The notes under the pieces were generated by a model. That model was not told the origin of the DNA. It saw only the letters and a list, made by a program, of their open reading frames with translations, and searched no databases. 64,000 bases of DNA from Candidatus Binataceae bacterium (GTDB lineage: Bacteria; Desulfobacterota; Binatia; Binatales; Binataceae): NCBI GenBank assembly GCA_035531615.1, contig DATKSQ010000092.1:4220-68219 (forward strand), in the 5' to 3' direction. The first letter of the stretch is position 1. Every line of letters starts with the position of its first letter. The position numbers were made by a program, and so were the translations under genes. Below, one piece after another: positions 11,809 through 46,966 of the stretch.

Positions 11809-12964
11809 CGGCTTGATTGAGGCGGCGTCCCGCGAGCGCGGTCTGATACATCGCCGCCATCCGCTCGCCGTAGCTGCTCCATCCGCCGAGCGACTGCACC
11901 CGCGCCAGCGCCGCGGCGCCCATCGCGTCACGAATGTCAGGATGCTCGTGCAGGAAGACCAGCTTGTCCGCTATCGCGGCTGCGTCACGAATCGGGACGA
12001 TAAAACCCTCGATACGGTCGGTGAAAAGGTCTTCGGCTCCCGTGTTCGTGGTCGCAATCACCGGAACGCCGCACGCCATCGCCTGCGCCATGACCAGCCC
12101 AAAGCCGTCCTCTATCGATGGAAGCACGAGGACCGAGGCCTGCGAGTAGTGCCCCGCCAGTTCGCCGCGTGGAAGTACGCCCAGATGGCGCAGTGGAACC
12201 CCGCAATTCCCCACCGTCTTTTTCGTATCGTCGTCCATAGATCCGATCAGCACCAGATCGAGGCCCGCAATCGCGGCGCGCTTCGCGGCTTCGAGCAGGT
12301 AGGCGATTCCCTTGCGGATCGATATCGATCCCACGAACAGGATGCGGAAGACCGAGTCGCGCTTCGGCATCGGATGGAACATCGAGAGATCGACGCCGTA
12401 GGGATTAAGCCGCAGCTTTTCGCGCGGCACGCCATATTCGAGGAACGAGCGCATCGCGAAGCTGGAGGGCACGCTGATCAAATCGCAGAATTCGTATTCG
12501 GCGAGTTCGCGATCGAGGATGCGCTGATCCGTGCCGCGAAACGGAATATCGAAGCGCGCGTATTCCTCGCGCAGAATCTCATTCTGAAACACTATGTGCG
12601 ACGAGCCGCGATCGCATACGGTCAGCGCGCCGTGGCGCGCGCGCGCCGCGCGATGGCTCTCAAGCCCAAACGAAGACAGGCAATGAAAGACCTCGCACGG
12701 CTCGACCCGCGCGGCCATCCAGCGGTCAAAGGTCTCGATCGCACGCATGTTCAGCCGCTCGCGCAAGCCCAGCATCCCGAACCGTCCCGCGATAGTCGCG
12801 GGTCCCATCAACCATGGAAAGGTACTGACTTTCCCGGCCGGCAATCCGTCAACCTTGAAGCGCGGATAGGCGGTATATAGCCGCGCCAGATGCCCGAGGC
12901 GCTCCATCTGCCGCGCCAGATCGAACGCCCAAAACGGCGCAGCGCTGGCAACTGCGACTTTGAT
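11789..12964 (-). CDS. GT4 glycosyltransferase; start uncertain (ATC 12964 aligns with the ATG of the duplicated stub)
   Basis: LFVGSISIRKG, PSIEDGFGLVMAQAMACG. Upstream in-frame ATGs at 13036/13057 overlap the start region of the divergent gene. Confidence 0.88.
   Translation of the reverse strand: MKVAVASAAPFWAFDLARQMERLGHLARLYTAYPRFKVDGLPAGKVSTFPWLMGPATIAGRFGMLGLRERLNMRAIETFDRWMAARVEPCEVFHCLSSFGLESHRAARARHGALTVCDRGSSHIVFQNEILREEYARFDIPFRGTDQRILDRELAEYEFCDLISVPSSFAMRSFLEYGVPREKLRLNPYGVDLSMFHPMPKRDSVFRILFVGSISIRKGIAYLLEAAKRAAIAGLDLVLIGSMDDDTKKTVGNCGVPLRHLGVLPRGELAGHYSQASVLVLPSIEDGFGLVMAQAMACGVPVIATTNTGAEDLFTDRIEGFIVPIRDAAAIADKLVFLHEHPDIRDAMGAAALARVQSLGGWSSYGERMAAMYQTALAGRRLNQADANSVR
12840..12964. 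repeat. Direct repeat copy 1 (5' end of GT4 gene)
   Basis: 125 bp, 15 mismatches against 14026..14150 by manual alignment (~88%). Confidence 0.95.
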
Positions 12965-13038
12965 CCGTGGGCATTGCGCGTTGCCTTTCGGGGAGGCAAC
13001 TTGACTTGCTTCCGCCAACGTTCCTAGGCTCCCCATCA

Positions 13039-14055
13039 ATGGATTCCCAACTGGCATCGGCGTTGGTCTGTCCGCGGGACCACTCCCCTCTGGAAACCTC
13101 CGGCCGCGCGCTGCGATGCGAAAGCGGCCACAGCTACCCGGTCATAGACGAAATTCCGGTCATGCTGCTGGACGATAGGGGGCAGACCCTGGGGGTCGCA
13201 AACGATGCGCTTCGCGAAGCTGCGCAATCGGAATCGGATTCGCCCGGCGAGCGACCGCTCGAACCAGAAGAGGTTGATAGTTACGTAGCGCACGCGATTG
13301 CCGCGACCGGGGGATTCTTTTACCTGCCGCTCATCGGGTCGCTTTCCGCGTATCCGATCCCGGCGCTCCGCCTGCCACCGGCATCGGGATCCCGCTTTCT
13401 CGACCTGGGATGTAATTGGGGGCGATGGTGTATTGCTGCGTCGCGGCTCGGATACGAGCCGTTCGGAATAGACCCCAGTCTCGACGGCGTGCGGGCAGCG
13501 CGCCGCGTGGCGAGCCAGCTCGGCGTCGCGGCTCACTACGCAGTTGCCGACGCGCGGTTTCTCCCATTCGCCGACGATAGTTTTGGGGTCGTGCATTCCT
13601 ACAGCGTGCTGCAGCATTTCAGCAAAGCCGACGCGAGGACCGCATTCACTGAGGCGGCGCGCGTTCTGCGCGCCGGAGGGACGGCGCTGGTTCAGATGCC
13701 GAACGTAATCGGTATCCGCAATTTGTATCATCAGGTGCGCCGTGGATTCCGCGAGCCGACCGGATTTGAAGTTCGATATTGGACACCGCGCGAGCTGCGC
13801 CAAACCGGTGAGAGTCTGATCGGACCGACCGAGATCTCCATCGATGGATTCTTCAGCCTGAACCCGCAACCCAATCAACTCCTTCCGCTGCGGTTTCGCA
13901 TGATCACAGGAGCATCGGAAATTTTGCGCCACACCGCCGAGTATATTCATCCGCTGCTTTATGCCGCCGATAGTCTGTACCTGACCGCTATAAAGACGCA
14001 GCACCATCAGCGCGATCGCTCCGCGGGCAATCCGTCCACCTTGAAGCGCGGATAG
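13039..14055 (+). CDS. Trm112-like domain fused to class I SAM methyltransferase (inverted relative to the operon)
   Basis: LVCPRDH..LRCESGHSYPVIDEIPVML followed by FLDLGCNWGRW and ADARFLPF; the only plus-strand gene in 1-37 kb. Confidence 0.88.
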   Translation: MDSQLASALVCPRDHSPLETSGRALRCESGHSYPVIDEIPVMLLDDRGQTLGVANDALREAAQSESDSPGERPLEPEEVDSYVAHAIAATGGFFYLPLIGSLSAYPIPALRLPPASGSRFLDLGCNWGRWCIAASRLGYEPFGIDPSLDGVRAARRVASQLGVAAHYAVADARFLPFADDSFGVVHSYSVLQHFSKADARTAFTEAARVLRAGGTALVQMPNVIGIRNLYHQVRRGFREPTGFEVRYWTPRELRQTGESLIGPTEISIDGFFSLNPQPNQLLPLRFRMITGASEILRHTAEYIHPLLYAADSLYLTAIKTQHHQRDRSAGNPSTLKRG

Positions 14056-14150
14056 GCGGTATAGAGGCGCGTCAGATGCCCGAGCCGCTCCATCTGCCGC
14101 GCCAGGTCGAACGCCCATAGCCGCCCCGCACTGGCTACTACGACTTTCAT
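14007..14150 (-). pseudogene. GT4 N-terminal stub (47 aa)
   Basis: MKVVVASAGRLWAFDLARQMERLGHLTRLYTAYPRFKVDGLPAERSR*. The ATG overlaps the upstream stop (ATGA). Homologous to the N-terminus of 11789..12964. Confidence 0.9.
14026..14150. repeat. Direct repeat copy 2 (5' end of GT4 gene)
   Basis: Aligns colinearly with 12840..12964 at an offset of 1186 bp. Confidence 0.95.
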
Positions 14151-15103
14151 GGATTCACGGCTTGCGCGGTGCGCACGCGCAGATAGATCGAGGAGGGAAA
14201 GTGGCTTTCTGGGTCATCGAAGAGAGGACTACCCGCACCGCGCAATCCATTTTCGGCCGGCTGTGGGTGATAATCCGGAAATACTTCTTGCAGGAGGCCA
14301 GGCCGATCGTAATGAAGCTGGGAGAGACAGAACGTAATCTCAACGCCGCGATTGCCGATCAGGAATGCATGCAGCAGCGCCGTTTCCTGCCACTGGAAGA
14401 AGGTTCGCAGCGCATCGCGCGGATAGTCGTAAGGCAGAAAAATATCGTGGAAGTGAACCACGACTCCCGGCTTAAGCCGCGGCAGCACCTCGAGGATCAG
14501 GAAGTTCGCGTCGCTGCCGGTCTTAACCGCGTGCGACGAGTCGATGAACAGGAAATCTCCGTCGCCAAGCGCCTCGAACAAATCGAAGGGGACCGCCTGC
14601 ACCGGTTTTTCTATCAGCGCCACCTGCGCGCCTTTAAGCCACGCGCTTGGATAGGGCTCTACGCAAGTGATCGCGCATCGCACGCCATTGCGCGCGGCGG
14701 CTTGCAGGATGCAATAGGTCGAGACCCCCGAACCCACCTCGACGATACGCTTTGGCTTGAGACTGCGGACGACGCAATGGAGCGCCTGCGCCTCTATATA
14801 CCCGTAGCCTGGTCCGCAGCCGGCTGAAAGGGCGCTAAAGTAATGGGGGTTGCCGTGAACCTCGGTTGCATACGGAGCGCAAATCTCACGCAACCGCGCG
14901 GCCTGCTGATCCAGGTCGGTCTCAACCCCCGCGAGCTGCGAGGGCTTGGCCCAAATATCCTTGCTCTTGGCGAGCTGAATAACGTCAGGAAAATCGATAT
15001 AGTAATGATTCGGAAGGACAACGGCCCCGCACCGCAGCCCGAGCTTATGGATTGAGAATAGCAACTCCTTGGCCCGGTTCTTGAGTTTTCGCTTAATCGA
15101 CAT
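14147..15103 (-). CDS. Class I SAM methyltransferase (Methyltransf_24-like)
   Basis: IVEVGSGVST, LFIDSSH.VKTGSD, LKPGVVVHFHDIFLPYDYP. Confidence 0.88.
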   Translation of the reverse strand: MSIKRKLKNRAKELLFSIHKLGLRCGAVVLPNHYYIDFPDVIQLAKSKDIWAKPSQLAGVETDLDQQAARLREICAPYATEVHGNPHYFSALSAGCGPGYGYIEAQALHCVVRSLKPKRIVEVGSGVSTYCILQAAARNGVRCAITCVEPYPSAWLKGAQVALIEKPVQAVPFDLFEALGDGDFLFIDSSHAVKTGSDANFLILEVLPRLKPGVVVHFHDIFLPYDYPRDALRTFFQWQETALLHAFLIGNRGVEITFCLSQLHYDRPGLLQEVFPDYHPQPAENGLRGAGSPLFDDPESHFPSSIYLRVRTAQAVNP

Positions 15104-15105
15104 CG

Positions 15106-15237
15106 CTATGCGCGTTTCCCAGCGACGATGGCGATGCGCAGATGGCGGCGCAGCCAGCGCAGGCGGTCATAGACCATCGGATCGCCCTGGATAAACATCG
15201 CGCGCCATCCGAGGAGGCGAATCAGCGGGTCAGTCAT
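15106..15237 (-). pseudogene. MTDP stub copy C (43 aa truncated gene start)
   Basis: MTDPLIRLLGWRAMFIQGDPMVYDRLRWLRRHLRIAIVAGKRA*; the stop lies 2 nt before the next ATG. Confidence 0.75.
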
Positions 15238-15302
15238 GGGAGCACCGGCATCATTGCTTGCGGGCGGTGCCTTGGCTGGTGAAATCGCATCGCTCCAGGC
15301 CC
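15178..15302. repeat. Direct repeat (3' end of the 17365 gene + spacer + MTDP start), copy C
   Basis: About 10 mismatches over 116 bp against 17292..17407; offset 2114 bp. Confidence 0.95.
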
Positions 15303-15331
15303 ATGTCTGCGCTTTTTCATCGAAATCACGC

Positions 15332-16219
15332 TCAGCCGTTCGCAGAGGCTGGTTTGGCAAGAATATCCGCGACGAGGTCCGGCCGCGCTCGGTTCGCGGG
15401 ACTCAGCGGCAGCTCACTGCCATCTTTCAAGAGATTATAAAATTCGTATTCAGCAATGCTCCGCAGGTACCCGACGACGTCATCCTGGGTGTATCCGAAC
15501 CGCTCGCTGTTGATGTCGCTCTCGAAGACAATCACTGGGCGATGAGAAGCGAGGGTCTTATGCGCGCCCTGAAACGCCGCCAACTCGCCGCCCTCGATAT
15601 CGATCTTGATCACATCAGGTGGCGGAATCTCGCCACTCGCCACCATTTCGTCGATCGTGGCCGCAGGGCACACCAAGGCTCTTGAACGCTTTTCGCGGGC
15701 GACCGCGGAGGCATGTATCTGATGTGATCCAATGAAGAGACGGCCCGAACCTGGCGTATTTCCAAGCATGACTGGGAGCACTTTCAATCGGCGGAAGGCG
15801 TTCAGGCCAGCCGACCGGGCGATCGCGAGCGCGAGATCCGGTTGGGGCTCGACCGCAATCACAAAAACCTGATCGTTAAAGAATCGCGCGACTTCGACCG
15901 ACATGTAACCTACGTTCGCCCCGATGTCGTAGAAGACCTTGTCTTTTCCGAGATAGCGAGCGCAGGCAAGAAAGACGTGGTAGTCCCACGACCCGCCGTT
16001 GTTCAGAAGATTTGCGAATACGTCGAAACTCCTGGAGGTTACCGCCAGCTTGCCCCCGTGTTTCGTCGGTACCCACTGATTGCCATCGGTGGAAAAACGC
16101 CCGGCCAAACGTGGAAACCATCCTTTGCCCCGGGGAACGTACTTTGCCCAGAGGCGGGCCAAGTCGAGCGCAAGACCGATATTTCCTTTGTCAGGCGTGT
16201 TCGATTTTTCGATGTTCAT
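15332..16219 (-). CDS. FkbM-family methyltransferase
   Basis: VFYDIGANVGY, AVEPQP, VIKIDIEGGE. Confidence 0.92.
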   Translation of the reverse strand: MNIEKSNTPDKGNIGLALDLARLWAKYVPRGKGWFPRLAGRFSTDGNQWVPTKHGGKLAVTSRSFDVFANLLNNGGSWDYHVFLACARYLGKDKVFYDIGANVGYMSVEVARFFNDQVFVIAVEPQPDLALAIARSAGLNAFRRLKVLPVMLGNTPGSGRLFIGSHQIHASAVAREKRSRALVCPAATIDEMVASGEIPPPDVIKIDIEGGELAAFQGAHKTLASHRPVIVFESDINSERFGYTQDDVVGYLRSIAEYEFYNLLKDGSELPLSPANRARPDLVADILAKPASANG

Positions 16220-16227
16220 CGTCAGAC

Positions 16228-16317
16228 TCAGTTAACCCAAGCGGGGTAAACAAGCCGGAGGAGTTCCGGCCGCGCTGGAACGCGCCACCCGAGGACGCGA
16301 ATCAGCGGGTCAGTCAT
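16228..16317 (-). pseudogene. MTDP stub copy B (29 aa)
   Basis: MTDPLIRVLGWRVPARPELLRLVYPAWVN*; 16281..16319 matches copies A and C at 37/39 nt. Confidence 0.75.
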
Positions 16318-16342
16318 GGATTCAATCAATCGGGCAACCCAC

Positions 16343-17272
16343 TCAGACTCTGCCGGCCCCGCCGCAAGGCCAGAAGGCGGCAAGATGCTCCGGCGGCACG
16401 ATCAGCACCTCGCACTCGGTGAAACCGGGTTCGGCCCGGAAACGCGCGAGCGAATGGGCAAATTGAGATCTGCCGGTAACCCCAAATACCGTCGCGCCGT
16501 CATAGAAGCACGAACGAAGCCCGGCCTCGCCGCCCAATTCGTTTAGCCCCGGCTCCGAGAGCTCCAGCAAGACGAACGGGCGATCGCGCGCGAAAACCGC
16601 CTTGAGGCCGCGAAGGACGGCAGGCTCAAAGCCCTCTACATCGATCTTGAAGATCCCAACGCCGGAGATTCCCTTCTCAGCCAGGAACTCGCTGGCTTGC
16701 CTGACCTCGATTGGAATGGAGGCGCGCGCGTTGCCGCCATGCGTCGCGAGAAAGGAGCCGGTCCCCTCGTTAACCGTGCATGGCGGAAAATACGCCATGG
16801 TCTCGTCCCGATCGCCGAGCGCGGTCTCAAATAAGGTGGCGTTTGCGATGTGGTTCAGTTCAATCTTTTCACGGGCACGCCGCAGGACGGACCCGTTCGG
16901 GTCAAACCCGTACAACTCATCGGCAAGGCCGCTCATAAGCAGCAGGTGATGACCGACGTTGACGCCGATATCCACATACACGACGCGCCGGCCGCGGCGG
17001 CGAAGATAACGGGCCGCGCGATCAAGGACGCTGAGCTCGGAGGGCGCGTGAGCTCCGTAAAGCAGCACGACCCAGTCGAGATAGTTCTTGGTATTTCCGC
17101 GGTAGCGTAAGCCGAAAAAGTCCACCTCGAAAGGCAGATCATAGCCCCGGTCGGGATTTAGGATCATAAACAAGAGCCGGTTTTGCCCCCTGAGTATCCA
17201 GCGTTGATGGCCTAGCCATCTCGCGAATCGAACCCGCAAGGGGAATTGGTTGGCGAATTTATCGTCAGGCAT
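16343..17272 (-). CDS. FkbM-family methyltransferase
   Basis: YVDIGVNVGHH, GFDPN, FKIDVEGFE. Confidence 0.92.
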   Translation of the reverse strand: MPDDKFANQFPLRVRFARWLGHQRWILRGQNRLLFMILNPDRGYDLPFEVDFFGLRYRGNTKNYLDWVVLLYGAHAPSELSVLDRAARYLRRRGRRVVYVDIGVNVGHHLLLMSGLADELYGFDPNGSVLRRAREKIELNHIANATLFETALGDRDETMAYFPPCTVNEGTGSFLATHGGNARASIPIEVRQASEFLAEKGISGVGIFKIDVEGFEPAVLRGLKAVFARDRPFVLLELSEPGLNELGGEAGLRSCFYDGATVFGVTGRSQFAHSLARFRAEPGFTECEVLIVPPEHLAAFWPCGGAGRV

Positions 17273-17351
17273 TATCAACCCCGAACCAAACCGGATCGCC
17301 CTGGATAAACATCGCGCGCCATCCGAGGACGCGAATCATCGGGTCAGTCAT
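17265..17351 (-). pseudogene. MTDP stub copy A (28 aa)
   Basis: MTDPMIRVLGWRAMFIQGDPVWFGVDNA*; its end overlaps the ATG of the FkbM gene. Confidence 0.75.
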
Positions 17352-17415
17352 GGGGATGTCGGCATCACTGCTTGCGGGCGGCGCCCTGGCTGGTGAAATC
17401 GCATCGCGCGAGGCC
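17292..17415. repeat. Direct repeat copy A (gene end + spacer + MTDP start)
   Basis: Colinear with 15178..15302. Confidence 0.95.
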
Positions 17416-18162
17416 GTGCGCGCTGCAGAAGTCCGGCCAGGCGGAATGGCCTAGGATATCGTCGCTCCACATCACGCCGCCCGGCCTCAGAAATGGCAGC
17501 GCAGTCTCGAATTCCCACATCATGTGGTCGTAGGAGTGGTCGCTGTCATGGATGAATATGTCGATCGAGCCGAGCGACTGGAGCAGCGGCGGCAGTTTCT
17601 CGCGCGCGTCGCCTGACACTACAGTATGGCGTTCAAGCAGGGCGCCGGGAATCGCCCATCCCGAGGTCAGGCCATCAGGGGTGAAGGAGTGGCCCTCGGC
17701 GGGATTCAGCTCGCGGCCGTCCGCGGGCGGCGGGGCGAGATCGACGGTCCATAGATGGCCGGCGGCGTTGCGATCGAGCGCGCGCAGGATAAAGGCCGAG
17801 GACTTGCCGGGGGTGCCTCCAGTCTCGACGATTTTTTCGGGGCGCATGATCCGGGTCAGCGCATAGAGCGCCACGCATGAGAAGAACATCGTATTGCCGT
17901 CGGGGGCGACCATGAAGTCAGTCGGCAGCGGGAAATAGTTTACGTGCTCGCGATAGCGGCCTCGGACGTCGGCGGTGAACTCGCGATCGTTTTCGATCTC
18001 GCGGCAGAAGCGGTCGGCCTCGGCGGATGAGGAGCCGGTAAGGCGGGCGAGTGAATCGTTGCGCACGCGCCGGAACTTTCCATATTGGAGCATCAATCGC
18101 GCGCGATTGACGATAGTGCGTGGCCGGCGGATCGCGATTCCAGCCGCTTCAATCCAATTCAT
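17365..18162 (-). CDS. Class I SAM methyltransferase (Methyltransf_24-like)
   Basis: IVETGGTPGKSS, DIFIHDSDHSY.HM.WE, LRPGG..WSDD. Confidence 0.88.
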   Translation of the reverse strand: MNWIEAAGIAIRRPRTIVNRARLMLQYGKFRRVRNDSLARLTGSSSAEADRFCREIENDREFTADVRGRYREHVNYFPLPTDFMVAPDGNTMFFSCVALYALTRIMRPEKIVETGGTPGKSSAFILRALDRNAAGHLWTVDLAPPPADGRELNPAEGHSFTPDGLTSGWAIPGALLERHTVVSGDAREKLPPLLQSLGSIDIFIHDSDHSYDHMMWEFETALPFLRPGGVMWSDDILGHSAWPDFCSAHGLARCDFTSQGAARKQ

Positions 18163-19456
18163 TTTGATGTTCAACCGAACTCCTTCGGCATCGCGCAGCC
18201 GGATCGTCCGCCACACCGGCGAGCGCAAGCAGTCTTTCCAGCACGGGGGCGAAGACCTGCTCGTAGTTGTATTTGGTTTCGTGCGCGCGGCGCGCCGCGA
18301 GGCTCATCGCGATATAGCGATCGCGGTCGGCGAGGATGAACTCGATCGCGCGGGCGATCGACGCGGGGTCTTCGGGATTGGCGTACGCGACCCATTCGTC
18401 ATCGGCGAAGAACTCGCGGAAGCTCTTGCGATCGGGAACCACCACCGGCAAGCCCCACGCCGCGTACTCGAACAACTTGTTGGGCGACGGCCCCGAATGC
18501 TCCCAGTTCGGGTTCGCGGCGTGATAGAGCACCAAGCCCACGGCCGCATCCTCGGCGCGCCGGATGCGCTCCGGATTCGGCACCCATCCGGCGATACTCA
18601 CGCGGCCCGCAAGCGCAAGTGCGGCGGCCATCTGCGAGAGCCGTATGCGATATTCCGGCGTGCTGAAGCCGATCAAGTCGAGAGCTACCGGAGCGGGCAG
18701 AAATTCGAGCGCGCGGATCGCGTCGGGCTGGCCGTTTTCGGCGCCCATCGAACCCACGTAGAGGACGCGCTTTGATTCCCAGCGGCGACGCGCCAACGCG
18801 CTCCAATCTTCGTCTTCGCGGGGCGGGTAGAAATCGCGCGCGGCGCCGTTGGGGATGATCATCGGCGGGCGCGGATCGCGGGCCTTATCGAGCCAGATCG
18901 GCGCGCGATATTTCGACGGAAAGATCGTGAACGCGGCGTCGCGCGTGTGGCGCATCGCATAGCGTAAAATCCAGTCCTGGAGCGACGCGAGCCGGACGCG
19001 GCCGAGCGCGGGAGTGTCGTGGCAGTGGAACACCACGGGGATATCTTTGCGCCGCGGGCCGAGCGCCGCGATCGAGGCGGCAAAGCCGATCGGATCGTAG
19101 GCGTAAATCAATGCGGGTCCGGTTTCGGCGATTACGCAACCCAGGCGGCGCACGAATCTTCGATACCACGACAGCTTGCGCCATGCGGGCGCATCGAAAG
19201 CCTGAGCCGCGGTGATAATCTCGCCGACCCGCTCGATCGTAACTCCGGGCGCCCAATCCGCCGCCGGTCCCGCGTCATTGCGGCATACGATTTGCACCTC
19301 GAAACGCTCGCTCATCATGCGCACGCCGTTGACGGTCGGCGGGTGGTAGTTGGGATTCGCGTACATCACGACGAGCAGGCGCGGGCGCGCGCGCGCGGCG
19401 GGAGTGATAGCCGGCGCGGGCGCGGCGCTAATTCGCGGTGGCGATGATGTGGCCAT
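18149..19456 (-). CDS. GT4 glycosyltransferase
   Basis: VLYVGSM, SPNKLFEYAAWGLPVV, DPASIARAI. Confidence 0.88.
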   Translation of the reverse strand: MATSSPPRISAAPAPAITPAARARPRLLVVMYANPNYHPPTVNGVRMMSERFEVQIVCRNDAGPAADWAPGVTIERVGEIITAAQAFDAPAWRKLSWYRRFVRRLGCVIAETGPALIYAYDPIGFAASIAALGPRRKDIPVVFHCHDTPALGRVRLASLQDWILRYAMRHTRDAAFTIFPSKYRAPIWLDKARDPRPPMIIPNGAARDFYPPREDEDWSALARRRWESKRVLYVGSMGAENGQPDAIRALEFLPAPVALDLIGFSTPEYRIRLSQMAAALALAGRVSIAGWVPNPERIRRAEDAAVGLVLYHAANPNWEHSGPSPNKLFEYAAWGLPVVVPDRKSFREFFADDEWVAYANPEDPASIARAIEFILADRDRYIAMSLAARRAHETKYNYEQVFAPVLERLLALAGVADDPAARCRRSSVEHQNELD

Positions 19457-19458
19457 AG

Positions 19459-20385
19459 TCAATGAATCACGCGCCGCAGGATCGCGTTCAGTTGGCATCC
19501 CTGTCCGCGTTCTGCGGCGTGCCGGTAGCGGAACCGAGTCAGGGAATTGCGGATCGCGACCTGCGGTTCGAGCATCAGTCTCAGTGGCCGCGGCAGAGCA
19601 TTCAACCGATATTGCATCGGCGCAACCGGGTAGCCCTCGGACCACGACTTGACGACTTCGAGGCCGTGGCTGCGGGCAAGATGCCCGAGGCTCTCTCGCG
19701 ACAGGTAATGCAGATGCTCGTAATTGATATGCAGATGGCACCATCGGTCGCCGGCCGCGCTCAGACCGCCTGCGTCAGGGGTGGAAACATAGATCGAACC
19801 GGCCGGCGCAAGACATCGCGCGGCCTCGTGGAGGAACGCGTCGAGCGCAGTCACGTGCTCGATTACATCGACCATCAAAATCAGATCGAATTCGCCTGGA
19901 GCAAAGTGCGCATCCTCGAGCGCCGCGCGCCGAAGATCGAGTCCGTAGCGCGTGCGTCCGAACTCGAGCGGTTCATCGGCGATATCGATTCCGACCAGCC
20001 GCCGGGGAGCATGGCGGCCGAGGCTCTGGAGCAAAGCACCGCTGGCGCATCCGATATCGAGCACGGATTTGCCGCCCAGCTCGAAATTAGCCGTGACCTC
20101 GCGGTACCCGGTAACATTACCGGCCTCGATCGAACGGTCGCGAACCTCGCAATAATTTTGTCCGTTGAAGAAATCCGAAGCGCCCGAGAAGTAGCCATTC
20201 TGGTAGCGCGAGAGTAGCGCCGAGGGCCTCGGCGCCGGATCGACAAATAGCAGGCCGCATCCACCGCAAGCCCGCAGGGGCAGACGGTCGCCACGATGCG
20301 CGACGAGAGGACCGTCCGGGCGCGCGCCGCATCCGGGGCACTCGAGGCGCGCCGCCAAGTCCTCAGAGTTCCAGGCTGGATTCAT
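19459..20385 (-). CDS. Class I SAM methyltransferase with N-terminal CxxC...CxxC
   Basis: CPGCG..CGGCG, VLDIGCASG, DVIEHV, EHLHY. Confidence 0.9.
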   Translation of the reverse strand: MNPAWNSEDLAARLECPGCGARPDGPLVAHRGDRLPLRACGGCGLLFVDPAPRPSALLSRYQNGYFSGASDFFNGQNYCEVRDRSIEAGNVTGYREVTANFELGGKSVLDIGCASGALLQSLGRHAPRRLVGIDIADEPLEFGRTRYGLDLRRAALEDAHFAPGEFDLILMVDVIEHVTALDAFLHEAARCLAPAGSIYVSTPDAGGLSAAGDRWCHLHINYEHLHYLSRESLGHLARSHGLEVVKSWSEGYPVAPMQYRLNALPRPLRLMLEPQVAIRNSLTRFRYRHAAERGQGCQLNAILRRVIH

Positions 20386-20445
20386 GCTGCTCGCATGCGG
20401 TAGTGCCTCGCGAAGGCGCGCATCTCGCGCGCGGCGTTAATCCGC

Positions 20446-21783
20446 TCAAGCCGATTCATGCGCGATGCTCCCCCATCCGGGATGTGCGATCGCGCGCGTA
20501 AATTCCCTGCCACTCATGCCGATAGCTCTAAGCGCCGCCGCCGGCAAATACCATCCGTTGGTCACCAGCCGTGCCGTGACCGTGGCGGCGACCACGCCCG
20601 CGGTTCCGAAGTGGCGTACCCACCACAACGACAGCGCCAAGTTGAGCGCAGCCTCGACCATGGCAAGCGCGGCATAGCCGTAATGGTGGGTGGTCGCCAT
20701 CAGGACCGCGTCCGCAGGAATCAGCAGCACGGACATGAAAAGAAGCGCCGCTTGCCATGCGAAGGTGGGACGGCCCGGAAATACGGTTGGACCGACCCAC
20801 AATCGGAGGAATGCCGGCCCTGCGAAGAAAAACAAAGATGTCGCGCAAAGCGCGTAGATTACCGAAAGTCTGGAAACCGCAACGAACCCGTCCGACACGG
20901 TGGCGCGATCGCCGCGCGTGAAGCGTGCGGTTAGCGTAGGCCATAGCGCGGTCGTGCCGACGGAGAAAACGCTGGTCGCAATCAGCGCAAGCCGCATCGG
21001 TACGGCGTATCGGGTTACCGCGGACCCGCCGAGCGCGTAACCGATAACCAGATTGTCCGCGCCAAAAACGAGGCTCGATCCGATCGAGAGTCCCAGGAAT
21101 CCCAGGCTCGGCTTGGCGAGATCGCGCACCACGGAGAACGAGCAACGCCTCAAGAGCGGACGCCCCTGCGGGAAGAGCCGGAGCGCAATGACGGTCGCCG
21201 CAATGCCCCCGCCAAGTCCCACCGCGCCTTGCACGATAGAAATCGCAACGAGCTTTTGTCCCGCGAGCATGACCGCGGCCAATCCTGCTACCCGGGCGAT
21301 ATTGGCAACGGCGGCAATCGCCTGCTCGCGATCGACGCGCTCGATACCGCGCAGAAGGGTCGCATACAGCCGCAGCGGATATGCGGCGGCGGTGAATGCA
21401 ACGAACAGCGCGCAGGCCGCTGTCGCTCGCGTGCTTGCACGCGGTGCGAGCCGGGCAGCCAGAGCCGGAGTCAGTATTGCGGCGCTTGCGATCACCGTGA
21501 AGGCCAGGACAACGTAGAACCAAAACGAGGTTGAAACGATCCGCGAAATCTCCGCGCTCTGGCGGCGGGCGGAGGCCTCGGCGATCCGGTTGCCGATCGC
21601 TTGCCACGAGCCGAGCCCGACGATGCCCAAATAGGAGCCAATTCCCACGATCACCAGCCATTGGCCGTAGAGCTCGCTCCCCAGGCATCGAACGTAAATC
21701 GGGATCAAAATCAGCGGTGCGGCGAAGCCGACCACGAAGTTCACATAGCTCCAGACGACGTTGCCGCGGATCGAGACTGTCAT
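20446..21783 (-). CDS. Wzx-type polysaccharide flippase (MOP superfamily)
   Basis: 12-14 TM pattern; GSELYGQW, ADNLVIGYALG..VTRYAV. Confidence 0.85.
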   Translation of the reverse strand: MTVSIRGNVVWSYVNFVVGFAAPLILIPIYVRCLGSELYGQWLVIVGIGSYLGIVGLGSWQAIGNRIAEASARRQSAEISRIVSTSFWFYVVLAFTVIASAAILTPALAARLAPRASTRATAACALFVAFTAAAYPLRLYATLLRGIERVDREQAIAAVANIARVAGLAAVMLAGQKLVAISIVQGAVGLGGGIAATVIALRLFPQGRPLLRRCSFSVVRDLAKPSLGFLGLSIGSSLVFGADNLVIGYALGGSAVTRYAVPMRLALIATSVFSVGTTALWPTLTARFTRGDRATVSDGFVAVSRLSVIYALCATSLFFFAGPAFLRLWVGPTVFPGRPTFAWQAALLFMSVLLIPADAVLMATTHHYGYAALAMVEAALNLALSLWWVRHFGTAGVVAATVTARLVTNGWYLPAAALRAIGMSGREFTRAIAHPGWGSIAHESA

Positions 21784-22901
21784 CAGACATATCGCCTGGC
21801 GGCAACCGTATGCGCAGCGGCATTGGCCTCGGCCCCCTGCGCGATATCGCGCAACGCGCGATCGATGATCTCGGCGTCGGGTGCGATTGATTCGATCGCC
21901 GTCCGACGGCGCTTATTCCGGGAACGGAGCGCCAGCCGCATTCCTGCGCGCGCTGCCCTTCCGGTCAGTCGATCTCCCGCAAGGCATCTTAGTATCGCGG
22001 CGCGAACCGGATCGCGGAAATAGCTGAATTCAAAACCGGCGCCCTTCTTAGCTAAATCGCTCCTCCCGGTAAGCGCCGCTCCGACGGCTTGGCGGAAGAC
22101 CCATTCCCGGAAACCCTTGCGGAGGTCGGCGCGCATTTCCGCGGTGAGCCTGGGGTTGAGTTCGCCCGCCTTCAACCCCTCGTCGATAGCCGCCGTGATG
22201 TTGCTAACAATTCTGGGCATATCGTGCAGCCAGGTCAGAAATGGATCCTCGCGGTAGTTGGAAGAGGGATACATGAAAAAAACCGCCGAGGGATGATGCG
22301 AGACAATCGCACTATGCCGCGATGCGGCACGCACCTCGAAATCAACGTCGCCGCACGAGCCGACCACCAGATCGAGTCCGCCCGAACGCCGTATCACAGA
22401 GGTCCGAAACACCATTCCGGTCCAGGTCAGCGAGGAGCGAAGCCGGATCAGGCGCTTGAATATCGATGGGACCGGACTGAAGCCTTCCGCCCAGAGTTTA
22501 ACCGGCTCGCCGATAATTCGTCCGTCCAAATCCGCCTGCAGTTGATTGCCGATGAAAAACCCAGCGCGTGGTTCGCGCTCCAATTCAGACAGCGCGACGG
22601 TGAAAAATCCGGGTAAAAGAATATCGTCGTCGCTCAGGATGCTGAAGTAAGGGGATTCGACGTGGTTCATGGCGTACGCGAAGTTCGGCATCATCCCGAC
22701 GTTGTTGGGATGGCGGAAGTATTTGACCCGGGCATCGCGCCGCATGATGTCGCCGACCACAGCGGCGGTATCATCCCCCGAGCAATCGTCGTAAACAGCG
22801 ACCTCGAAATCGGCGAAGTCCTGCGCGAGCACGCTGAGAATCGCGCGGCGCAACAACTCGGGCCGCCTGAAAGTTGGAATGACGGTCGTGATCAATGCCA
22901 T
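21783..22901 (-). CDS. GT2 glycosyltransferase
   Basis: VIPTFRRP, VYDDCSGD, LSDDD. Confidence 0.92.
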   Translation of the reverse strand: MALITTVIPTFRRPELLRRAILSVLAQDFADFEVAVYDDCSGDDTAAVVGDIMRRDARVKYFRHPNNVGMMPNFAYAMNHVESPYFSILSDDDILLPGFFTVALSELEREPRAGFFIGNQLQADLDGRIIGEPVKLWAEGFSPVPSIFKRLIRLRSSLTWTGMVFRTSVIRRSGGLDLVVGSCGDVDFEVRAASRHSAIVSHHPSAVFFMYPSSNYREDPFLTWLHDMPRIVSNITAAIDEGLKAGELNPRLTAEMRADLRKGFREWVFRQAVGAALTGRSDLAKKGAGFEFSYFRDPVRAAILRCLAGDRLTGRAARAGMRLALRSRNKRRRTAIESIAPDAEIIDRALRDIAQGAEANAAAHTVAARRYV

Positions 22902-22929
22902 CGAATCAATCTTAATTCAGCTTAACTAC

Positions 22930-23988
22930 TTACTTCGTCGCGGTGAGCAGAATTTCTTCGCCTGCGGGCATTATCCAATTCAAGCCGCGCTCGATGCGGC
23001 AAAAGGTTCCGGCAAGAATGGTCTCCACCCGCGATTGAGCGCGACCCGCCGCGAAGCGGCCGGTTCGGCGAATCGAGAGACTGGCGACAAGGATCCATCC
23101 AGAGGTATGCGTGCTCGCCACGGTCTTAGCACGCGAAAATCCCGCTTGGCGCGCGAGTTCGGAGAGCGCCTCGGGTGTGAACAACATCAGGTGCCTGGGC
23201 GGGTCAAGGTGGGCCCAGTTGCTGCCGAAAAGCCGGTGCCCAACACTTCGAATGTTGGGAGTGGCAATGGACAACTGGCCGCCGGATTTGAGCACGCGTC
23301 TAGCCTCGCTCAGAACCGCAAGCGGATCGGGTACGTGTTCGATCGAATGGATCATCGTCACCGCGTCGAAGCTGTCGGCCGGGTAGCGGTGCTCACCCAA
23401 GCTGCCCAATTCGACGTTTAGTCCACGCCGGTTGGCACTCCGAACCGCCTCGGGATCGAAATCGACTCCGTGCGGCTCCCAACCAAGTGATTTCATGGCA
23501 AGAAGGAAGTCGCCCGATCCGCATCCGACGTCGAGGAGCCTTCCTCCTGGAATCGCACGCAGCCTCATCACCAAGGTTTCGACAAACTCGCGCCGCGCAG
23601 GCATTACCCAAGCAATGAGGGCTGCGAGGCGATGCGCTGCCGTCGCACCTCCCTGTGGAACGTAGCCGAAGCGCGACCACAGGTAACTCTCGCGCACGAA
23701 TCGGCTGGCGCGGCGCAGCGCGCTAGCCGGGCCGACGGAGCCGGCCGCTGGCGCCACAGAATCGTCTTGCTGGTGGGTAAAATAGGCCGCGTAAGCAAGC
23801 CCGAGATCTTCTGCCAGCGGCGCCGGATTCAACCACATGGAACGGCATCGCCGATTTGCGCATTTCATCAAGGACCACCGGCCCGGAGCCGCGAAGAGCC
23901 TGTCCGTAAGATCGGCATAGGTAGGCACGCCGCCGGATCCGCAGAGCGGGCAATTCGGTCGGGTAACGGTGCGAATTGTACGAGCCAT
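22930..23988 (-). CDS. Class I SAM methyltransferase with N-terminal Cys cluster
   Basis: CPLCG..CANRRC, LLDVGCGSG, HSIEHVPDP, DPPRHL. Confidence 0.9.
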   Translation of the reverse strand: MARTIRTVTRPNCPLCGSGGVPTYADLTDRLFAAPGRWSLMKCANRRCRSMWLNPAPLAEDLGLAYAAYFTHQQDDSVAPAAGSVGPASALRRASRFVRESYLWSRFGYVPQGGATAAHRLAALIAWVMPARREFVETLVMRLRAIPGGRLLDVGCGSGDFLLAMKSLGWEPHGVDFDPEAVRSANRRGLNVELGSLGEHRYPADSFDAVTMIHSIEHVPDPLAVLSEARRVLKSGGQLSIATPNIRSVGHRLFGSNWAHLDPPRHLMLFTPEALSELARQAGFSRAKTVASTHTSGWILVASLSIRRTGRFAAGRAQSRVETILAGTFCRIERGLNWIMPAGEEILLTATK

Positions 23989-24037
23989 ATCCGCGGTTTG
24001 TGGGGATAAAATCAACTCAAACTCCCTTTCACAACTC

Positions 24038-25045
24038 TCAGGATTTGGCCCGCGTCCACTGTGCCCAGCTTGGCGGTAGATTTCGATCGAGCTCGATTCG
24101 CGTGAACGGCTGTGTCTCACGCGCACCATGGCTGCGAGCCCATCGGGCCATCCGCTCGATTCCATCCTCGAGGCCGATACAGGAATGGCGGCCGAAAACG
24201 CGCTGAGCCTTATCGTGCTGCGAAAAGGCGTGCTCAACCTCGAGGCGAGCCGGAAGAAACTCGATGCGCGGTTCCACGCCGAAGACGCGCGCGACCGCTT
24301 CCGCGACCGCGCGGACGGTATAGGGCTGATCGGCGCCGACGTTGAACACGTCGTTGCGGGCTTCGGGAATATCGACGCTGCGGGCAATCAAGGGTGCGAC
24401 GTCGTGGATATGGCTGAAAGCTCGGGTCTGCGTGCCGTCGCCAAATATCGTCATCGGCTCGCCGCGCATCACCTGATTCATGAATATCCCGATGACGTTG
24501 CGATACCTGTCGCCAATATTTTGGTGCTCGCCATAGACGTTATGCGGGCGAAAGACGATGAAGTCGAGTCCGAACATCGCGTGCGCGCTGCGAAGATCGA
24601 GTTCGACCGCGTACTTGCTGATTCCGTAAGGATCCTCTGGGAGCGGCGTTTGGTCTTCTTCCATCGGCGTCTGAGCCGCCCCGTAAACCGCGATCGAAGA
24701 CGTGAACACAAGGCATCGGACCGAATGCGCCACAGCGGCGTTGATGAGGTTCGCGCTGCCAACCAGATTATTGGTGTAATTGAAGCGGCGAATGAAGTGC
24801 GATAGACCCTCGGCCGCATAGGCCGCAAGGTGATAAACGAAATCAAATTTGCTCTCCGCGAACACGCGCTCGACCAAGGCATGGTCAGTGACGGACCCCT
24901 CGATCAGCCGCGCCGCGCGCGGAACGTTCTGCTCGAATCCGCCTGAGAGGTCGTCGAGGACGACGACTTCGTGACCCAGTTCCAGACAGTGACGTGCGAC
25001 GTGCGAGCCAATGAAGCCCGCGCCGCCCGTGACTAGCGATCGCAT
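24038..25045 (-). CDS. NAD-dependent epimerase/dehydratase (GalE-like SDR)
   Basis: TGGAGFIG, DDLSGG, SSIAVYG, PYGISK. Confidence 0.92.
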   Translation of the reverse strand: MRSLVTGGAGFIGSHVARHCLELGHEVVVLDDLSGGFEQNVPRAARLIEGSVTDHALVERVFAESKFDFVYHLAAYAAEGLSHFIRRFNYTNNLVGSANLINAAVAHSVRCLVFTSSIAVYGAAQTPMEEDQTPLPEDPYGISKYAVELDLRSAHAMFGLDFIVFRPHNVYGEHQNIGDRYRNVIGIFMNQVMRGEPMTIFGDGTQTRAFSHIHDVAPLIARSVDIPEARNDVFNVGADQPYTVRAVAEAVARVFGVEPRIEFLPARLEVEHAFSQHDKAQRVFGRHSCIGLEDGIERMARWARSHGARETQPFTRIELDRNLPPSWAQWTRAKS

Positions 25046-25167
25046 GAGTTACCTCCGGACACTCTGACCTCGGCGTCCGCGAGCACGCTGTCGATTGCGC
25101 GCGCGATCGTGCGCGCGCCGTTGAAGACGGGAATTATCGCCGCGACGGCTGGGTGCTTGGTAGTCAT
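25033..25167 (-). pseudogene. GT2 N-terminal stub (44 aa)
   Basis: MTTKHPAVAAIIPVFNGARTIARAIDSVLADAEVRVSGGNSCDR*; the ATG is 1 nt after the upstream stop. Confidence 0.8.
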
Positions 25168-25168
25168 C

Positions 25169-26371
25169 TCAATTTTCCGCCGCGCGGCCGGTCACCGCGG
25201 CGATCGCCGCGAGCAGGCCTGCGCGGTCGGCTGCGAAGCTGTAGCGCGATACGATTTCGAGGCTCTTTGCGCCCATCGCGGCGGCGTGCTCGGGGCTGCG
25301 CGTGACGCGTTCGAGCGCTCGCGCGAGCGCGCCGATATCGCCCGCCGGATAAACGAATCCGTTTGCGCCGTCGATCACCAGGTCGGGCGCCGCGCCGACC
25401 GCATCGCTGGCGATTACGGGCTTGGCGGCGTTCATGACTTCATTGAGGATCAATCCCCACGGTTCCGCATTGGAGGGCAGCACGAAAACATCGCACAGGT
25501 CGTACAGGCGCGGCAGCTCGGTCTGGTTGCGGAAGCCGAGGAAACGGACCGCGCCGCCCAGTCCAAGCTCGCGCGTGCGGGCTTCCAGAGCCGCGCGCTC
25601 CTCGCCGTCGCCGACCATCAGCAGGTAAGGATGCGGGGGAGCCCCGATGGCGGCGCAGGCCTCGATAAGGTCGCGGGCGCGCTTGCGCGGCTGGAATTTC
25701 GAGGCGAACAGGATGATCGGCCGTCCCGTCGCCAGTCCGAGCTCGCACCGGAGTTGCTCGCGGCGCGGGCGCGCCGCCTCGGCGTGCGAGCGGAAAAATT
25801 CGTTATCGACCGCATACGGCATCGAAAAGATTTTCGCCTCGGGAACTCCATAGGCGAGATAGTACTCGCGGTTGCGCGTGCCGACCGCAAGAAACCCGTC
25901 GATCGCGGAGAACAGGCGCGGGAGAATCCGGGCCTTGAGTGCGCGGCGGGCTGGTGACCTGGCGCCATCGGCGATATTCGAATCGCCGCGCATCAGCACC
26001 TTGATTCCGAGCGAGCGCGCCGCGGCGACGGCGCGGAGCATCGCCTGATGCGCATAGCCGTGGACCCATAGCGCGTCGAAGCGGCCCTCGCGCAGGCGGC
26101 GGCGGATTCGGCGGGTGAACGGGCGCCAGAACGAGATTTCATCGATTGCGCCGAACGCGGGCAGAAATTCGCTTCTGTATCCTTCGATCAGCGGAACATC
26201 CCATTTGAACGCGACGCCGAATCCGGGGTCATGATATTCGCGCACGGAAAGGTCGCTTAAGAACAGCACCGTCAGATCGATTTCGGGCGACGCCGCCAGA
26301 TAGCGGAACATCGGCGCCTGGTACTGGATCGGATGCGAGACCAGGCATGCGATTCGATACGGCGAGGTCAT
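25169..26371 (-). CDS. GT4 glycosyltransferase
   Basis: SHPIQYQAP, LFASKF..RK, PSNAEPWGLILNEVM. Confidence 0.92.
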   Translation of the reverse strand: MTSPYRIACLVSHPIQYQAPMFRYLAASPEIDLTVLFLSDLSVREYHDPGFGVAFKWDVPLIEGYRSEFLPAFGAIDEISFWRPFTRRIRRRLREGRFDALWVHGYAHQAMLRAVAAARSLGIKVLMRGDSNIADGARSPARRALKARILPRLFSAIDGFLAVGTRNREYYLAYGVPEAKIFSMPYAVDNEFFRSHAEAARPRREQLRCELGLATGRPIILFASKFQPRKRARDLIEACAAIGAPPHPYLLMVGDGEERAALEARTRELGLGGAVRFLGFRNQTELPRLYDLCDVFVLPSNAEPWGLILNEVMNAAKPVIASDAVGAAPDLVIDGANGFVYPAGDIGALARALERVTRSPEHAAAMGAKSLEIVSRYSFAADRAGLLAAIAAVTGRAAEN

Positions 26372-46535: not shown

Positions 46536-46931
46536 TCAGGTCCGCGCGGGCGCCGCGAACCAGTCGCGAGCGTTACCGGTAAATATCATCACGGTGGCAA
46601 TCACCTGCAGTACCAATTGTGTAAGGCTCAGTATCCCCGCGATCGGAGCGAAATGTAGCGTGGGCGCGAGCATCCGAAAGTATCCCGGAAGTCCCAAAAC
46701 TCCAATGATCAGCAGTAGCCATCGAGCCCAGTTTTTGCGCCGCCGCGCGACCAGCCAAATGAAGCAGACGATGATCGCGAGCGTTATGGCCTGAACCCAA
46801 AAGACGAAGGTCGCGCCGCCGACCCGGCCCGCCTGTGCGACCAGCCTGGTCCACGTCAATGCCGAGACCAGCACGCCTATGCCAAGCGACAGGTACATGA
46901 GTCGTTCGAATCGCGCGACGTTGGATGGCAT
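46536..46931 (-). CDS. Small 4-TM membrane protein
   Basis: Four hydrophobic segments; RRRKNWARW. Confidence 0.7.
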   Translation of the reverse strand: MPSNVARFERLMYLSLGIGVLVSALTWTRLVAQAGRVGGATFVFWVQAITLAIIVCFIWLVARRRKNWARWLLLIIGVLGLPGYFRMLAPTLHFAPIAGILSLTQLVLQVIATVMIFTGNARDWFAAPART

Positions 46932-46966
46932 TTCGGTCCCCGTGATCCGCACTAGCGCGGCAGTTC

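Follow-up and report, generated by a model that had tools for sequence, protein, structure and literature searches.

Five truncated gene starts in a mosaic polysaccharide locus of a Binataceae bacterium are probably scars of recombination and deletion

Gene remnants in O-antigen clusters have been described as signs of recent events or rearrangement and of serial deletions (PMC3715488, PMC7685785), and the same gene can carry different serial deletions in different lineages (PMC3715488). Homology-facilitated illegitimate recombination (HFIR), documented in three transformable bacteria, combines one homologous anchor with one illegitimate microhomology join and works without a site-specific recombinase (PMC6382021). 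We compared these systems with five short open reading frames (ORFs), here called stubs A to E, that lie in the polysaccharide locus of Candidatus Binataceae bacterium. The window, i.e., the whole stretch of DNA analyzed, is 64,000 nt long.

Like the remnants of O-antigen and capsule clusters (wzy in Salmonella groups B1/D1; the "anomalies" of E. coli), the stubs are short pieces, without function, of genes that related clusters carry intact, and they sit at the borders of blocks with different relationships. They differ in their density, with five remnants within 11 kb and three of them from one gene start, and in the ~125-nt duplicated gene junctions on either side of two inserts. In addition, no IS or H-repeat element was found at the junctions in the window, and the host is an uncultured soil bacterium rather than an enterobacterium. 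HFIR predicts a recipient stub and a donor copy diverged at synonymous sites, as is the case for the direct repeat D1 described below; the experimental evidence for it comes from Acinetobacter, Pseudomonas stutzeri and Streptococcus, whereas here the model of one homologous and one illegitimate crossover is inferred from end products only. Deletions between short direct repeats have their counterpart in stub B, in a 51-aa deletion in the metagenome contig L042 and in the first join of locus L043, all between 10-16-nt repeats in one methyltransferase gene (Y); the only unusual point is that one repeat neighborhood served in at least two independent deletions, one in the window and one in the G001/G009 lineage.

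Integron cassettes also consist of single promoterless genes in one orientation with short repeated elements between them, but the repeats found here are direct copies of coding 5′ ends rather than imperfect palindromic attC sites, and the junctions are heterogeneous. No integrase (IntI included) or transposase domain was detected among window ORFs of 180 aa or longer between 1 and 50 kb, and the 13.9-17.5 kb interval contains no attC-like site and only one unrelated 15-nt inverted repeat, which rejects an integron and agrees with the recombinase-free character that a preliminary description had proposed for the locus. A diversity-generating (DGR, TR/VR) origin was likewise rejected, as the mismatches between the repeats hit all bases and no RT was found among the annotated genes. 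The stubs are probably a known type of scar of polysaccharide clusters and not a new gene-grafting device or mechanism.

Reading the sequence directly, we found all five ORFs on the minus strand where they had been reported (Table 1). They encode 28-47 aa, none has a Pfam match, and what they preserve is the beginning, 13 to 43 codons long, of three enzyme genes of ordinary kinds. Full-length parents were recovered for all of them, namely Y (stubs B, C and D), GT4 (A) and GT2 (E), which bears out the proposal that the ORFs are truncated N-termini. None is long enough for a catalytic domain, which begins at residue 35 in Y and spans residues 9-170 in GT2. The MTDP start said to be shared by three of the ORFs is a 37-nt sequence that occurs three times with at most one mismatch (0 expected, from 100 shuffles), and its proposed likeness to class I methyltransferases was correct, as Y is a ~250-aa member of this class.

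Each stub starts close to an upstream stop or duplicated gene end, in agreement with the preliminary description. Stub D starts 13 nt after the stop of gene X, stub C 25 nt after that of FkbM1 and stub E 1 nt after that of GT4. Stub A shares an ATGA with the stop of the 14147-15103 gene, and stub B is preceded, at a distance of 13 nt, by a duplicated 3′ remnant of X that measures 51 nt. At their other end, stubs B and C stop short of the next ATG by 2 nt and 8 nt, and stubs D and E overlap the ATG of FkbM1 (17272) by 8 nt and that of the epimerase by 13 nt. The stop-near-start arrangement of a translationally coupled upstream ORF is thus present in B, C, D and E, for which coupling is possible from the sequence, and absent from A. 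The "next minus-strand gene" that had been placed after stub A is spurious: the 360-aa ORF at 13036-14118 is antisense to the real plus-strand gene at 13039-14055. The 20-kb architecture is reproduced with 100% identity in another public contig, L126, whose length differs.

Table 1. Positions of the stubs, of the repeats' gene copies and of neighboring genes in the window
Feature	Position	Strand	Description
Stub A	14007..14150	-	First 43 codons of GT4 gene (homology 14023-14150) and 4-codon tail
D1 second copy, 5′ end of intact GT4 gene	12837..12964	-	From repeat search; Pfam GT4
Intact GT4 gene	11789-12964	-	Further ATGs in frame upstream, at 13036 and 13057
Inserted single methyltransferase gene (Methyltransf_25/11)	13039..14055	+	Reversed, between both D1 copies
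M24b (Methyltransf_24)	14147..15103	-	Junction with Y (TAG CG ATG) native, as in genome G007
Stub B	15106..15237	-	Y with 206-codon in-frame internal deletion; 33 N-terminal and 10 C-terminal codons, own stop
X 3′ remnant, 51 nt	15251..15301	-	Ends in CDFTSQGTARKQ and stop; upstream of stub B; within D2 copy B (15178-15301)
FkbM-family methyltransferase 2 (FkbM2)	15332..16219	-	
Stub C	16228..16317	-	12-13 codons of Y (16281-16317) and 16-codon tail
FkbM-family methyltransferase 1 (FkbM1)	16343..17278	-	Probable ATG at 17272
Stub D	17265..17351	-	20 codons of Y (17292-17351) and 8-codon tail; within D2 copy D (17292-17415)
Gene X (Methyltransf_24)	17365..18228	-	
Stub E	25033..25167	-	30 codons of GT2 (25079-25167 homologous to 340-aa GT2 of G009) and 14-codon tail
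Block in place of lost GT2	21783..25045	-	Epimerase 24038-25045, methyltransferase ~22930-23970, GT2 21783-22901

Stub B is an in-frame internal deletion of the resident gene Y and not a graft. Full-length Y (249-250 aa, PF13489/PF08241) was found in seven related genomes, six of the same genus and one of another genus in the family, the 33-aa stub portion being 69-97% identical; full-length copies are carried by G003, G005, G007, G008, G009, G010, G025, L043 and L125. Against G007, window positions 15240-15136 align with 697-801 of Y and positions 15151-14900 with 1405-1655. The two alignments overlap in GCGCCGCCATCTGCGC, and 206 codons (249 minus 43) are deleted. The junction is a 16-nt microhomology at 15136-15151, and the deletion lies between two ~16-nt direct repeats. 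The stub keeps the start and the stop of Y together with its native junction with the next gene, and undeleted Y occupies the same place in relatives, including L125 and G007. In L125, the closest relative, colinearity (92%) extends from the ATG of stub C to that very microhomology, after which the sequence continues into full-length Y. What had been taken as a linker behind the breakpoint of stub B is the C-terminus of Y itself.

The same gene was degraded by different routes elsewhere. G001 and G009 share an older mini-Y whose junction neighbors that of the window, and Y of L042 has lost 51 aa in frame between AAML repeats. In L043, an X-Y′ stub is joined via GGCGCGCGAT to Y codons ~96-110, followed by a 3′ fragment of GT4_531. 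Of these four different deletions, the simple ones (window, G001/G009 lineage, L042) are in frame and the L043 scar is out of frame. Two other ideas about Y were discarded. In-frame stop readthrough or recoding between stub B or C and the next gene is incompatible with spacers of 2 nt and 8 nt and differing frames, and the 5′ end of Y is not an unusually conserved recombination handle, at 77-86% nucleotide identity versus 61-92% elsewhere in the gene.

Stub A runs into the 3′ end of the plus-strand methyltransferase gene, so that ribosomes starting at the stub would be delivered to nothing. At the join, the native stop of the inserted gene was lost, and the reading frame runs on for 18 residues, antisense into the GT4′ repeat. 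All relatives examined have a full-length GT4, and the intact copy in the window has ATC where the stub A copy has the ancestral ATG. In G007, the order is M24b, a GT4′ stub, a different methyltransferase in forward orientation, and GT4, with a breakpoint within ~17 nt of that in the window.

A repeat search identified D1 (12837-12964 and 14023-14150; 128 nt, 88% identity), which brackets the reversed methyltransferase, D2 (15178-15301 and 17292-17415; 124 nt, 90%), which brackets the two FkbM genes, and D3 (39 nt, three copies). The copies of D1 differ at 16 sites, 11 of which are third codon positions (P = 0.004), which indicates that they diverged as coding genes and did not decay in place. 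This is consistent with D1 representing a donor and a recipient allele, although gene conversion may have played a part. The left edges of the repeats coincided with the points at which context diverges, and the right edges were abrupt. This genome has three ~125-nt bracketing repeats, which, together with the two independent GT4 breakpoints, hint at a regularity beyond plain chance recombination. A fixed length of ~125 nt is ruled out genome-wide, as the lengths of bracketing direct repeats spread over 85 to 274 nt without a sharp peak.

Stubs C, D and E probably mark the left borders of imported or replaced blocks, and to this extent the earlier idea that genes were grafted inside other genes is supported; B is a deletion, and A feeds no downstream gene. 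Stub C and its stop are retained with FkbM2 in L125, where the upstream gene differs and the ORF extends upstream to an ATGA overlap with it. The junctions of stub C and of the X remnant (X′) both recur in this independent JGI assembly, with 3 of the 16 tail residues differing. The stub C-FkbM2 module recurs with 92% identity in another metagenome, where a different gene precedes it. FkbM2 is rare: homologs were found at 93% and 86% in two metagenome contigs, but the gene is absent from 80 relatives, and matches in species-representative genomes do not exceed 36% identity. FkbM1 also adjoins Y in contig C90 and in L124, where FkbM2 lies between CgeB′ and GT4 3′ fragments, and the direct X-Y adjacency preserved in D2 is intact in L042. 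FkbM1 homologs at 68-71% (L127-L131) were set aside as context for stub D, being in unrelated loci with no Y remnants. The GT2 parent of stub E is intact (340 aa) in G009, of the same genus, directly after the orthologous GT4. The block that replaces it (21783-25045) comprises an epimerase, a methyltransferase and a GT2, and none of these was seen when the orthologous regions of same-genus genomes were fetched. Next to it, Wzx is only 43-53% identical to same-genus versions, and GT4_400, at 78-83% identity to relatives, stands beside a block missing from them. Relatedness or gene content thus changes at the stubs bordering the epimerase block, FkbM2 and the stub A insert. The tail of stub E covers the GGAGG and ATG of the epimerase, which has this Shine-Dalgarno sequence of its own; FkbM1 has a G-run at the right distance.

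The tails of A, C, D and E have no match in the fetched loci or the whole metagenome-assembled genome (MAG), and for the joins of C and D (tails of 53 and 27 nt) no donor was found among the fetched sequences. An apparent likeness of the stub C tail to the 3′ end of a Zn-ribbon methyltransferase (ELL.L…AW) was dismissed because its alignment scores equal those of shuffled sequence.

We consider it probable, with good confidence, that recombination and deletion left the five ORFs behind as scars, by two routes, in a Wzx-type polysaccharide locus that is highly mosaic. In the route shown for stub B, an internal deletion between short direct repeats removed 206 codons of resident Y in frame and left a 43-codon mini-ORF. 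By the other, which would apply to A, C, D and E, blocks of genes from related loci would be imported or replaced through ordinary recombination, with one crossover in shared sequence and one illegitimate join a few dozen codons into a recipient gene, whose start is left behind as the stub. A donor block bringing its own copy of that start would create a ~125-nt direct repeat around the insert, as in D1 and D2. The stubs might later serve as short homologous crossover sites, which fits the finding that the gene preceding the stub C-FkbM2 module varies between genomes. The position of four stub ends at or near the next start is best read as a by-product, since B has a native junction and the joins of C, D and E immediately precede the ribosome-binding site that the newcomer itself brings. 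Which events survived may have been filtered by selection against polar ones, with no dedicated mechanism implied. The frame of all four forward stubs stays open as far as the next start, which could reflect selection and is a point against a pure by-product. Additional remnants of Y, GT4 and CgeB with different breakpoints in relatives show that the locus is broadly mosaic, and the varied, partly out-of-frame junctions of these and of GT4_531 remnants argue for decay and recombination scars rather than designed coupling.

The preliminary description had gone further, proposing that new modifying genes are grafted so that the old start delivers ribosomes to them. Methyltransferase genes were indeed gained one or two at a time, but a designed coupling device is not borne out. 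That grafting a few dozen codons inside genes is preferred, with the stubs selected as coupling ORFs that relay ribosomes in a general process of cassette accretion, is unlikely in our view. Four stubs do stop between 8 nt before and 13 nt after the next ATG, stub C keeps its stop in L125 while overlapping a different gene there by ATGA, three Y deletions (window, G001/G009 lineage, L042) stayed in frame, and two different ORFs elsewhere in the genome (C106) begin with a duplicated gene start of ~129 nt. Against this, stub B is a deletion with a native junction, stub A faces an antisense gene, the L043 scar is out of frame, and the downstream genes have Shine-Dalgarno-like sequences of their own. 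The changes at 3 of 16 residues give no sign of constraint on the stub C peptide, and a 39-codon frame would be open by chance in about one third of cases at 62% G+C, by our own base-composition estimate. A wider version would have the clade regularly add polysaccharide-modifying genes singly, by one-ended homologous recombination breaking in the first 10-45 codons. Surviving stubs would be those that prevent ribosomes from leaving the mRNA before the next start and so avoid polarity, and ~40-130-nt gene-start repeats would be portable homology for moving, swapping or dropping cassettes. The result would be a readable, recombinase-free cassette array, with the genome's other ~125-nt bracketing duplications produced by the same process; we regard this as unlikely, if a little less so than the selected relay.

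It is very unlikely that D1, D2 and D3 are handles for excision or exchange, by which RecA would remove or swap methyltransferase islets and generate glycan variation in the population. The lengths and identities of the repeats (124-128 nt at 88-90%, and 39 nt) would allow this, and excision at D1 would give back a GT4 that begins with ATG, in place of the present ATC, and is coupled to the operon. The gene occupying the GT4′ slot also differs between the window and G007, and homology of the stub C module begins exactly at the stub ATG in two different contexts. However, no excised or alternative form was seen, the other assembly being 100% identical over 20 kb; a divergence of 10-12% cuts recombination efficiency (PMC6382021); and the Y 5′ end is no more conserved than the remaining gene. 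Chimeric joins between co-occurring metagenome strains, in assembly or binning, are hardly credible as the source of the stubs. The genome is a 153-contig MAG with 3% contamination, and the 3-kb contig C90 is a divergent version of the locus, probably from another organism; but the repeat copies are 88-95% identical rather than exact k-mer overlaps, the breakpoints lie in unique sequence, G007 has a stub-A-like architecture, L126 reproduces the locus exactly, and the L125 assembly has the stub C and X′ junctions.

For annotation, neither the 28-47-aa ORFs nor the 360-aa antisense ORF should be taken as genes, and the 5′-extended methyltransferase ORF at 22930-24387 is not a gene over its full length. 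Read as scars of recombination and deletion, the stubs make this locus an unusually legible record of how a surface-polysaccharide cluster is rebuilt, through the in-frame deletion of a methyltransferase, the import of genes with a copy of a neighboring gene start and the reuse of a module behind different genes. The breakpoints recurring inside gene starts, and the ~125-nt bracketing repeats recurring in this genome, may be of interest at the population level.

Within a MAG of 3.67 Mb in 153 contigs (completeness 87%, contamination 3%), a Wzx-type polysaccharide cluster occupies the minus strand from ~3 kb to 34 kb of the window. It encodes a Poly_export/SLBB exporter, Wzi, a weak Wzz-like protein, GT9, several GT4 and GT2 glycosyltransferases, a putative Wzx-like flippase (445 aa, without a Pfam match), one carbamoyltransferase and numerous SAM methyltransferases. 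The coordinates and start and stop contexts of five short ORFs among these genes, stubs A to E, match the preliminary description. ENA contig L126 (104.8 kb) is 100% identical across window 7000-27167, so the stub architecture is reproduced in another assembly.

Stubs, genes and repeats of the locus in minus-strand order, followed by repeat pairs elsewhere in the MAG (window positions unless a contig is named)
Feature	Position	Strand	Neighbors
GT4_400	25169-26371	-	then stub E
Stub E	25033-25167	-	
Epimerase	24038-25045	-	after stub E; then methyltransferase, GT2, Wzx, methyltransferase, GT4_531
X (Methyltransf_24)	17365-18228	-	after GT4_531; then stub D
Stub D	17265-17351	-	
FkbM1	16343-17278	-	between stubs D and C
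Stub C	16228-16317	-	
FkbM2	15332-16219	-	after stub C; then 51-nt X remnant and stub B
Stub B	15106-15237	-	
M24b (Methyltransf_24)	14147-15103	-	between stubs B and A
Stub A	14007-14150	-	
Methyltransf_25 gene	13039-14055	+	reversed; between stub A and GT4
GT4	11789-12964/13057	-	next to reversed methyltransferase; CgeB-like GT follows
Repeat D1	12837-12964 / 14023-14150		
Repeat D2	15178-15301 / 17292-17415		
Repeat pair	C106:44815-44938 / 46841-46968		
Repeat pair	C2:10489 / 12481		
Repeat pair	C6:50662 / 52167		
Repeat pair	C82:13889 / 15728		

The MTDP start shared by stubs B, C and D was confirmed as a 37-39-nt repeat in three copies, with 0 expected by chance. The 33-aa stub B query matched open frames of 250-315 aa at 69-97% identity in seven relatives, six of the same genus (G003, G005, G007, G008, G009 and G010) and one of another (G025). 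As the preliminary description suggested, this parent, Y, is a class I methyltransferase: the 249-aa G007 protein hits PF13489/PF08241 from residue 35, so all three stubs stop short of the SAM-binding fold. Stub A DNA and the beginning of the intact GT4, which lies 1.2 kb downstream, are 87% identical. Stub E matches codons 1-30 of a GT2 of 340 aa (PF00535), with homology stopping at window 25079. Full-length parents thus exist for the stubs, and comparison of orthologous loci revealed uninterrupted alleles: full-length Y in the JGI contig L125, and the 340-aa GT2 in G009, directly behind the GT4_400 ortholog and ahead of Wzx.

The preliminary description proposed that new genes were grafted a few dozen codons inside an old gene, whose start relays ribosomes to the newcomer. 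This does not apply to stub B, which is an internal deletion of Y rather than a graft. Window 15240-15136 aligned with G007 Y positions 697-801 and window 15151-14900 with G007 1405-1655, comprising Y's last 15 codons and M24b; the alignments overlap at GCGCCGCCATCTGCGC (window 15136-15151), and G007 has similar 15-16-nt sequences at both sites. The deletion removes 206 codons in frame (249 - 43). The tail is no random linker; it is Y's own C-terminus (IAIVAGKRA*), with Y's stop codon, and the native M24b junction, TAG-CG-ATG, follows. L125, the closest relative found, is 92% identical to and colinear with window 16317-15136; its homology runs from precisely the stub C ATG to precisely the 15136-15151 microhomology, beyond which L125 goes on into full-length Y.

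Y decays repeatedly within the genus. An older mini-Y that is itself partly decayed (…RWL.RH[LM]|Q.Y.SIA…EK.KP*), with its junction a few bases away from that of stub B, is common to G001 and G009. Metagenome contig L042 has the plain order X-Y-GT4, with a 51-aa in-frame deletion in Y between two AAML-coding repeats. In contig L043, X is followed by MTDPLIRILGWRA and an out-of-frame join via GGCGCGCGAT to Y codons ~96-110, then by a 3' fragment of GT4_531 and, after ~5 kb including an IS fragment, by intact Y-GT4. Stub B and the L042 and L043 scars show deletion between short direct repeats. The transposase fragment and ~5-kb insert separating the X-Y' scar from intact Y in L043 (OCZT010003540.1, 2400-3000) indicate that IS elements help remodel the orthologous locus in some relatives.

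Stub D overlaps one copy of D2, and stub C lies between the two copies. This 124-nt direct repeat (90% identity) holds the 3' end of X and Y codons 1-20, separated by a 13-nt spacer, and shows that X and Y were formerly direct neighbors, as still in L042. The D copy runs from intact X through 20 codons of Y to a break 19 nt ahead of the FkbM1 ATG, and the B copy opens with just 51 nt of X and runs on into Y. FkbM1, stub C and FkbM2 fill the interval. The window and L125 have in common the unit stub C – FkbM2 – X remnant – Y; in L125 a membrane-protein gene takes the place of FkbM1 upstream. FkbM1-Y adjacency recurs on MAG contig C90 and its near-identical ENA counterpart L124; in L124, FkbM2 (86% identity) has another location, flanked on one side by a CgeB' stub plus Y-like fragment and on the other by a 3' fragment of GT4. 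No donors for the stub C and D joins were found in the fetched loci, the whole MAG, species-representative genomes or FkbM1-homolog contexts. C90 (3,019 bp, outside the window) carries the locus in divergent form, in the order X 3' end – Methyltransf_11 – FkbM1 (72% identity) – full-length Y – GT4 start. The C90 copy of Y is 58% identical over the stub and 98.9% identical to that of L124, whose wider context differs, so C90 was probably binned into the MAG from a related second organism.

Stub E forms the left edge of an epimerase + methyltransferase + GT2 block alongside a divergent Wzx. At this position G009 has one GT2 only, and G005 and G003 have no gene between GT4_400 and Wzx. A 485-aa TTG ORF at 22930-24387 runs ~350 nt into the epimerase gene; its methyltransferase domain begins at residue 265, its true start is probably an ATG near 23970 (MARTIRTV…), and another assembly's gene prediction calls it as 302 aa.

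At stub A, the "next minus-strand gene" of the preliminary description is 360-aa antisense noise, and the real gene is a plus-strand methyltransferase, an almost exact single-gene insert between the copies of D1, a 128-nt direct repeat (88% identity) across the GT4 start. Compared with a 320-aa G025 homolog, this gene lacks its native stop and continues for 18 codons antisense into the truncated GT4 start (GT4'); the resulting 18-residue C-terminal extension (window 13999-14055) is partly encoded by the antisense of this repeat. Stub A retains its start ATG, which overlaps the M24b stop as ATGA. In the intact GT4 that codon is ATC (12962-12964), unlike the ATG of the stub and of every relative, so the gene needs an in-frame ATG farther upstream, by 24 or 31 codons (13036, 13057), or is poorly translated. 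Starting at either ATG, it would overlap the 5' region of the divergent methyltransferase gene. The ~20 nt before the GT4 ATG (…GCTGAG..GCTGAAT.CATGA) are alike whether Y, M24b or a Zn-ribbon methyltransferase precedes; exchanged units seem to carry a short leader that supplies the final codons of whichever gene comes before.

Of the 16 D1 mismatches, 11 fall at third codon positions (binomial P = 0.004), so both copies were coding while they diverged. In-place duplication followed by stub decay would not give this pattern; the copies fit a recipient and a donor allele, as expected if blocks from related loci were imported. We infer that import would involve one homologous crossover and one illegitimate join, the latter inside the recipient gene's first 13-43 codons. 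It would account for the abrupt right repeat edges, the left edges at points of context divergence, the synonymous divergence of D1 and the cut-off end of the inserted methyltransferase. Homology-facilitated illegitimate recombination yields such an outcome (PMC6382021), and Campbell-type integration of a circularised fragment could give the same product. In agreement with the recombinase-free route proposed earlier, import would require no site-specific recombinase, and the ORFs >=180 aa in window 1-50 kb yielded neither an integrase nor a transposase domain.

Near-coincident GT4 breakpoints in two species and repeats elsewhere in the genome leave a small probability for a more regular process. 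G007 shares the order M24b – GT4' stub – insert – GT4, its insert being a different methyltransferase in forward orientation and its breakpoint no more than ~17 nt from that in the window. In both genomes the stub most resembles the intact GT4 beside it (87% in the window, 93% in G007, 80% between stubs), which means separate events or else gene conversion. Elsewhere in the MAG, many direct repeats of 85-270 nt (82-97% identity) bracket 1-5 kb and may reflect insertion in the manner of D1 and D2; in the 129-nt C106 pair, MQ(K/E)PIISADSHI occurs as the gene start in both copies, each time at the head of a different ORF. Bracketing-repeat length shows no sharp peak across the whole MAG.

Translational coupling is possible for the four stubs that end <=13 nt from the next ATG, all but stub A; stub B does so because it keeps a native junction. 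The epimerase carries a GGAGG of its own and FkbM1 a G-run, the L043 scar is out of frame, and the stub C tail peptide is unconserved (3/16 residues changed in L125). By our base-composition estimate, a 39-codon frame stays open by chance about 1 in 3 times at 62% G+C. Rho-dependent polarity is a general basis for selection against untranslated gaps, and selection against such polar gaps is plausible here.

In E. coli O-antigen clusters, gene remnants occur in 9 of the 68 anomalies recorded over 178 serogroups, and these anomalies are said usually to point to a relatively recent genetic event (PMC7685785). The window locus is of the same kind, a dense example of this documented class of gene-remnant clusters.
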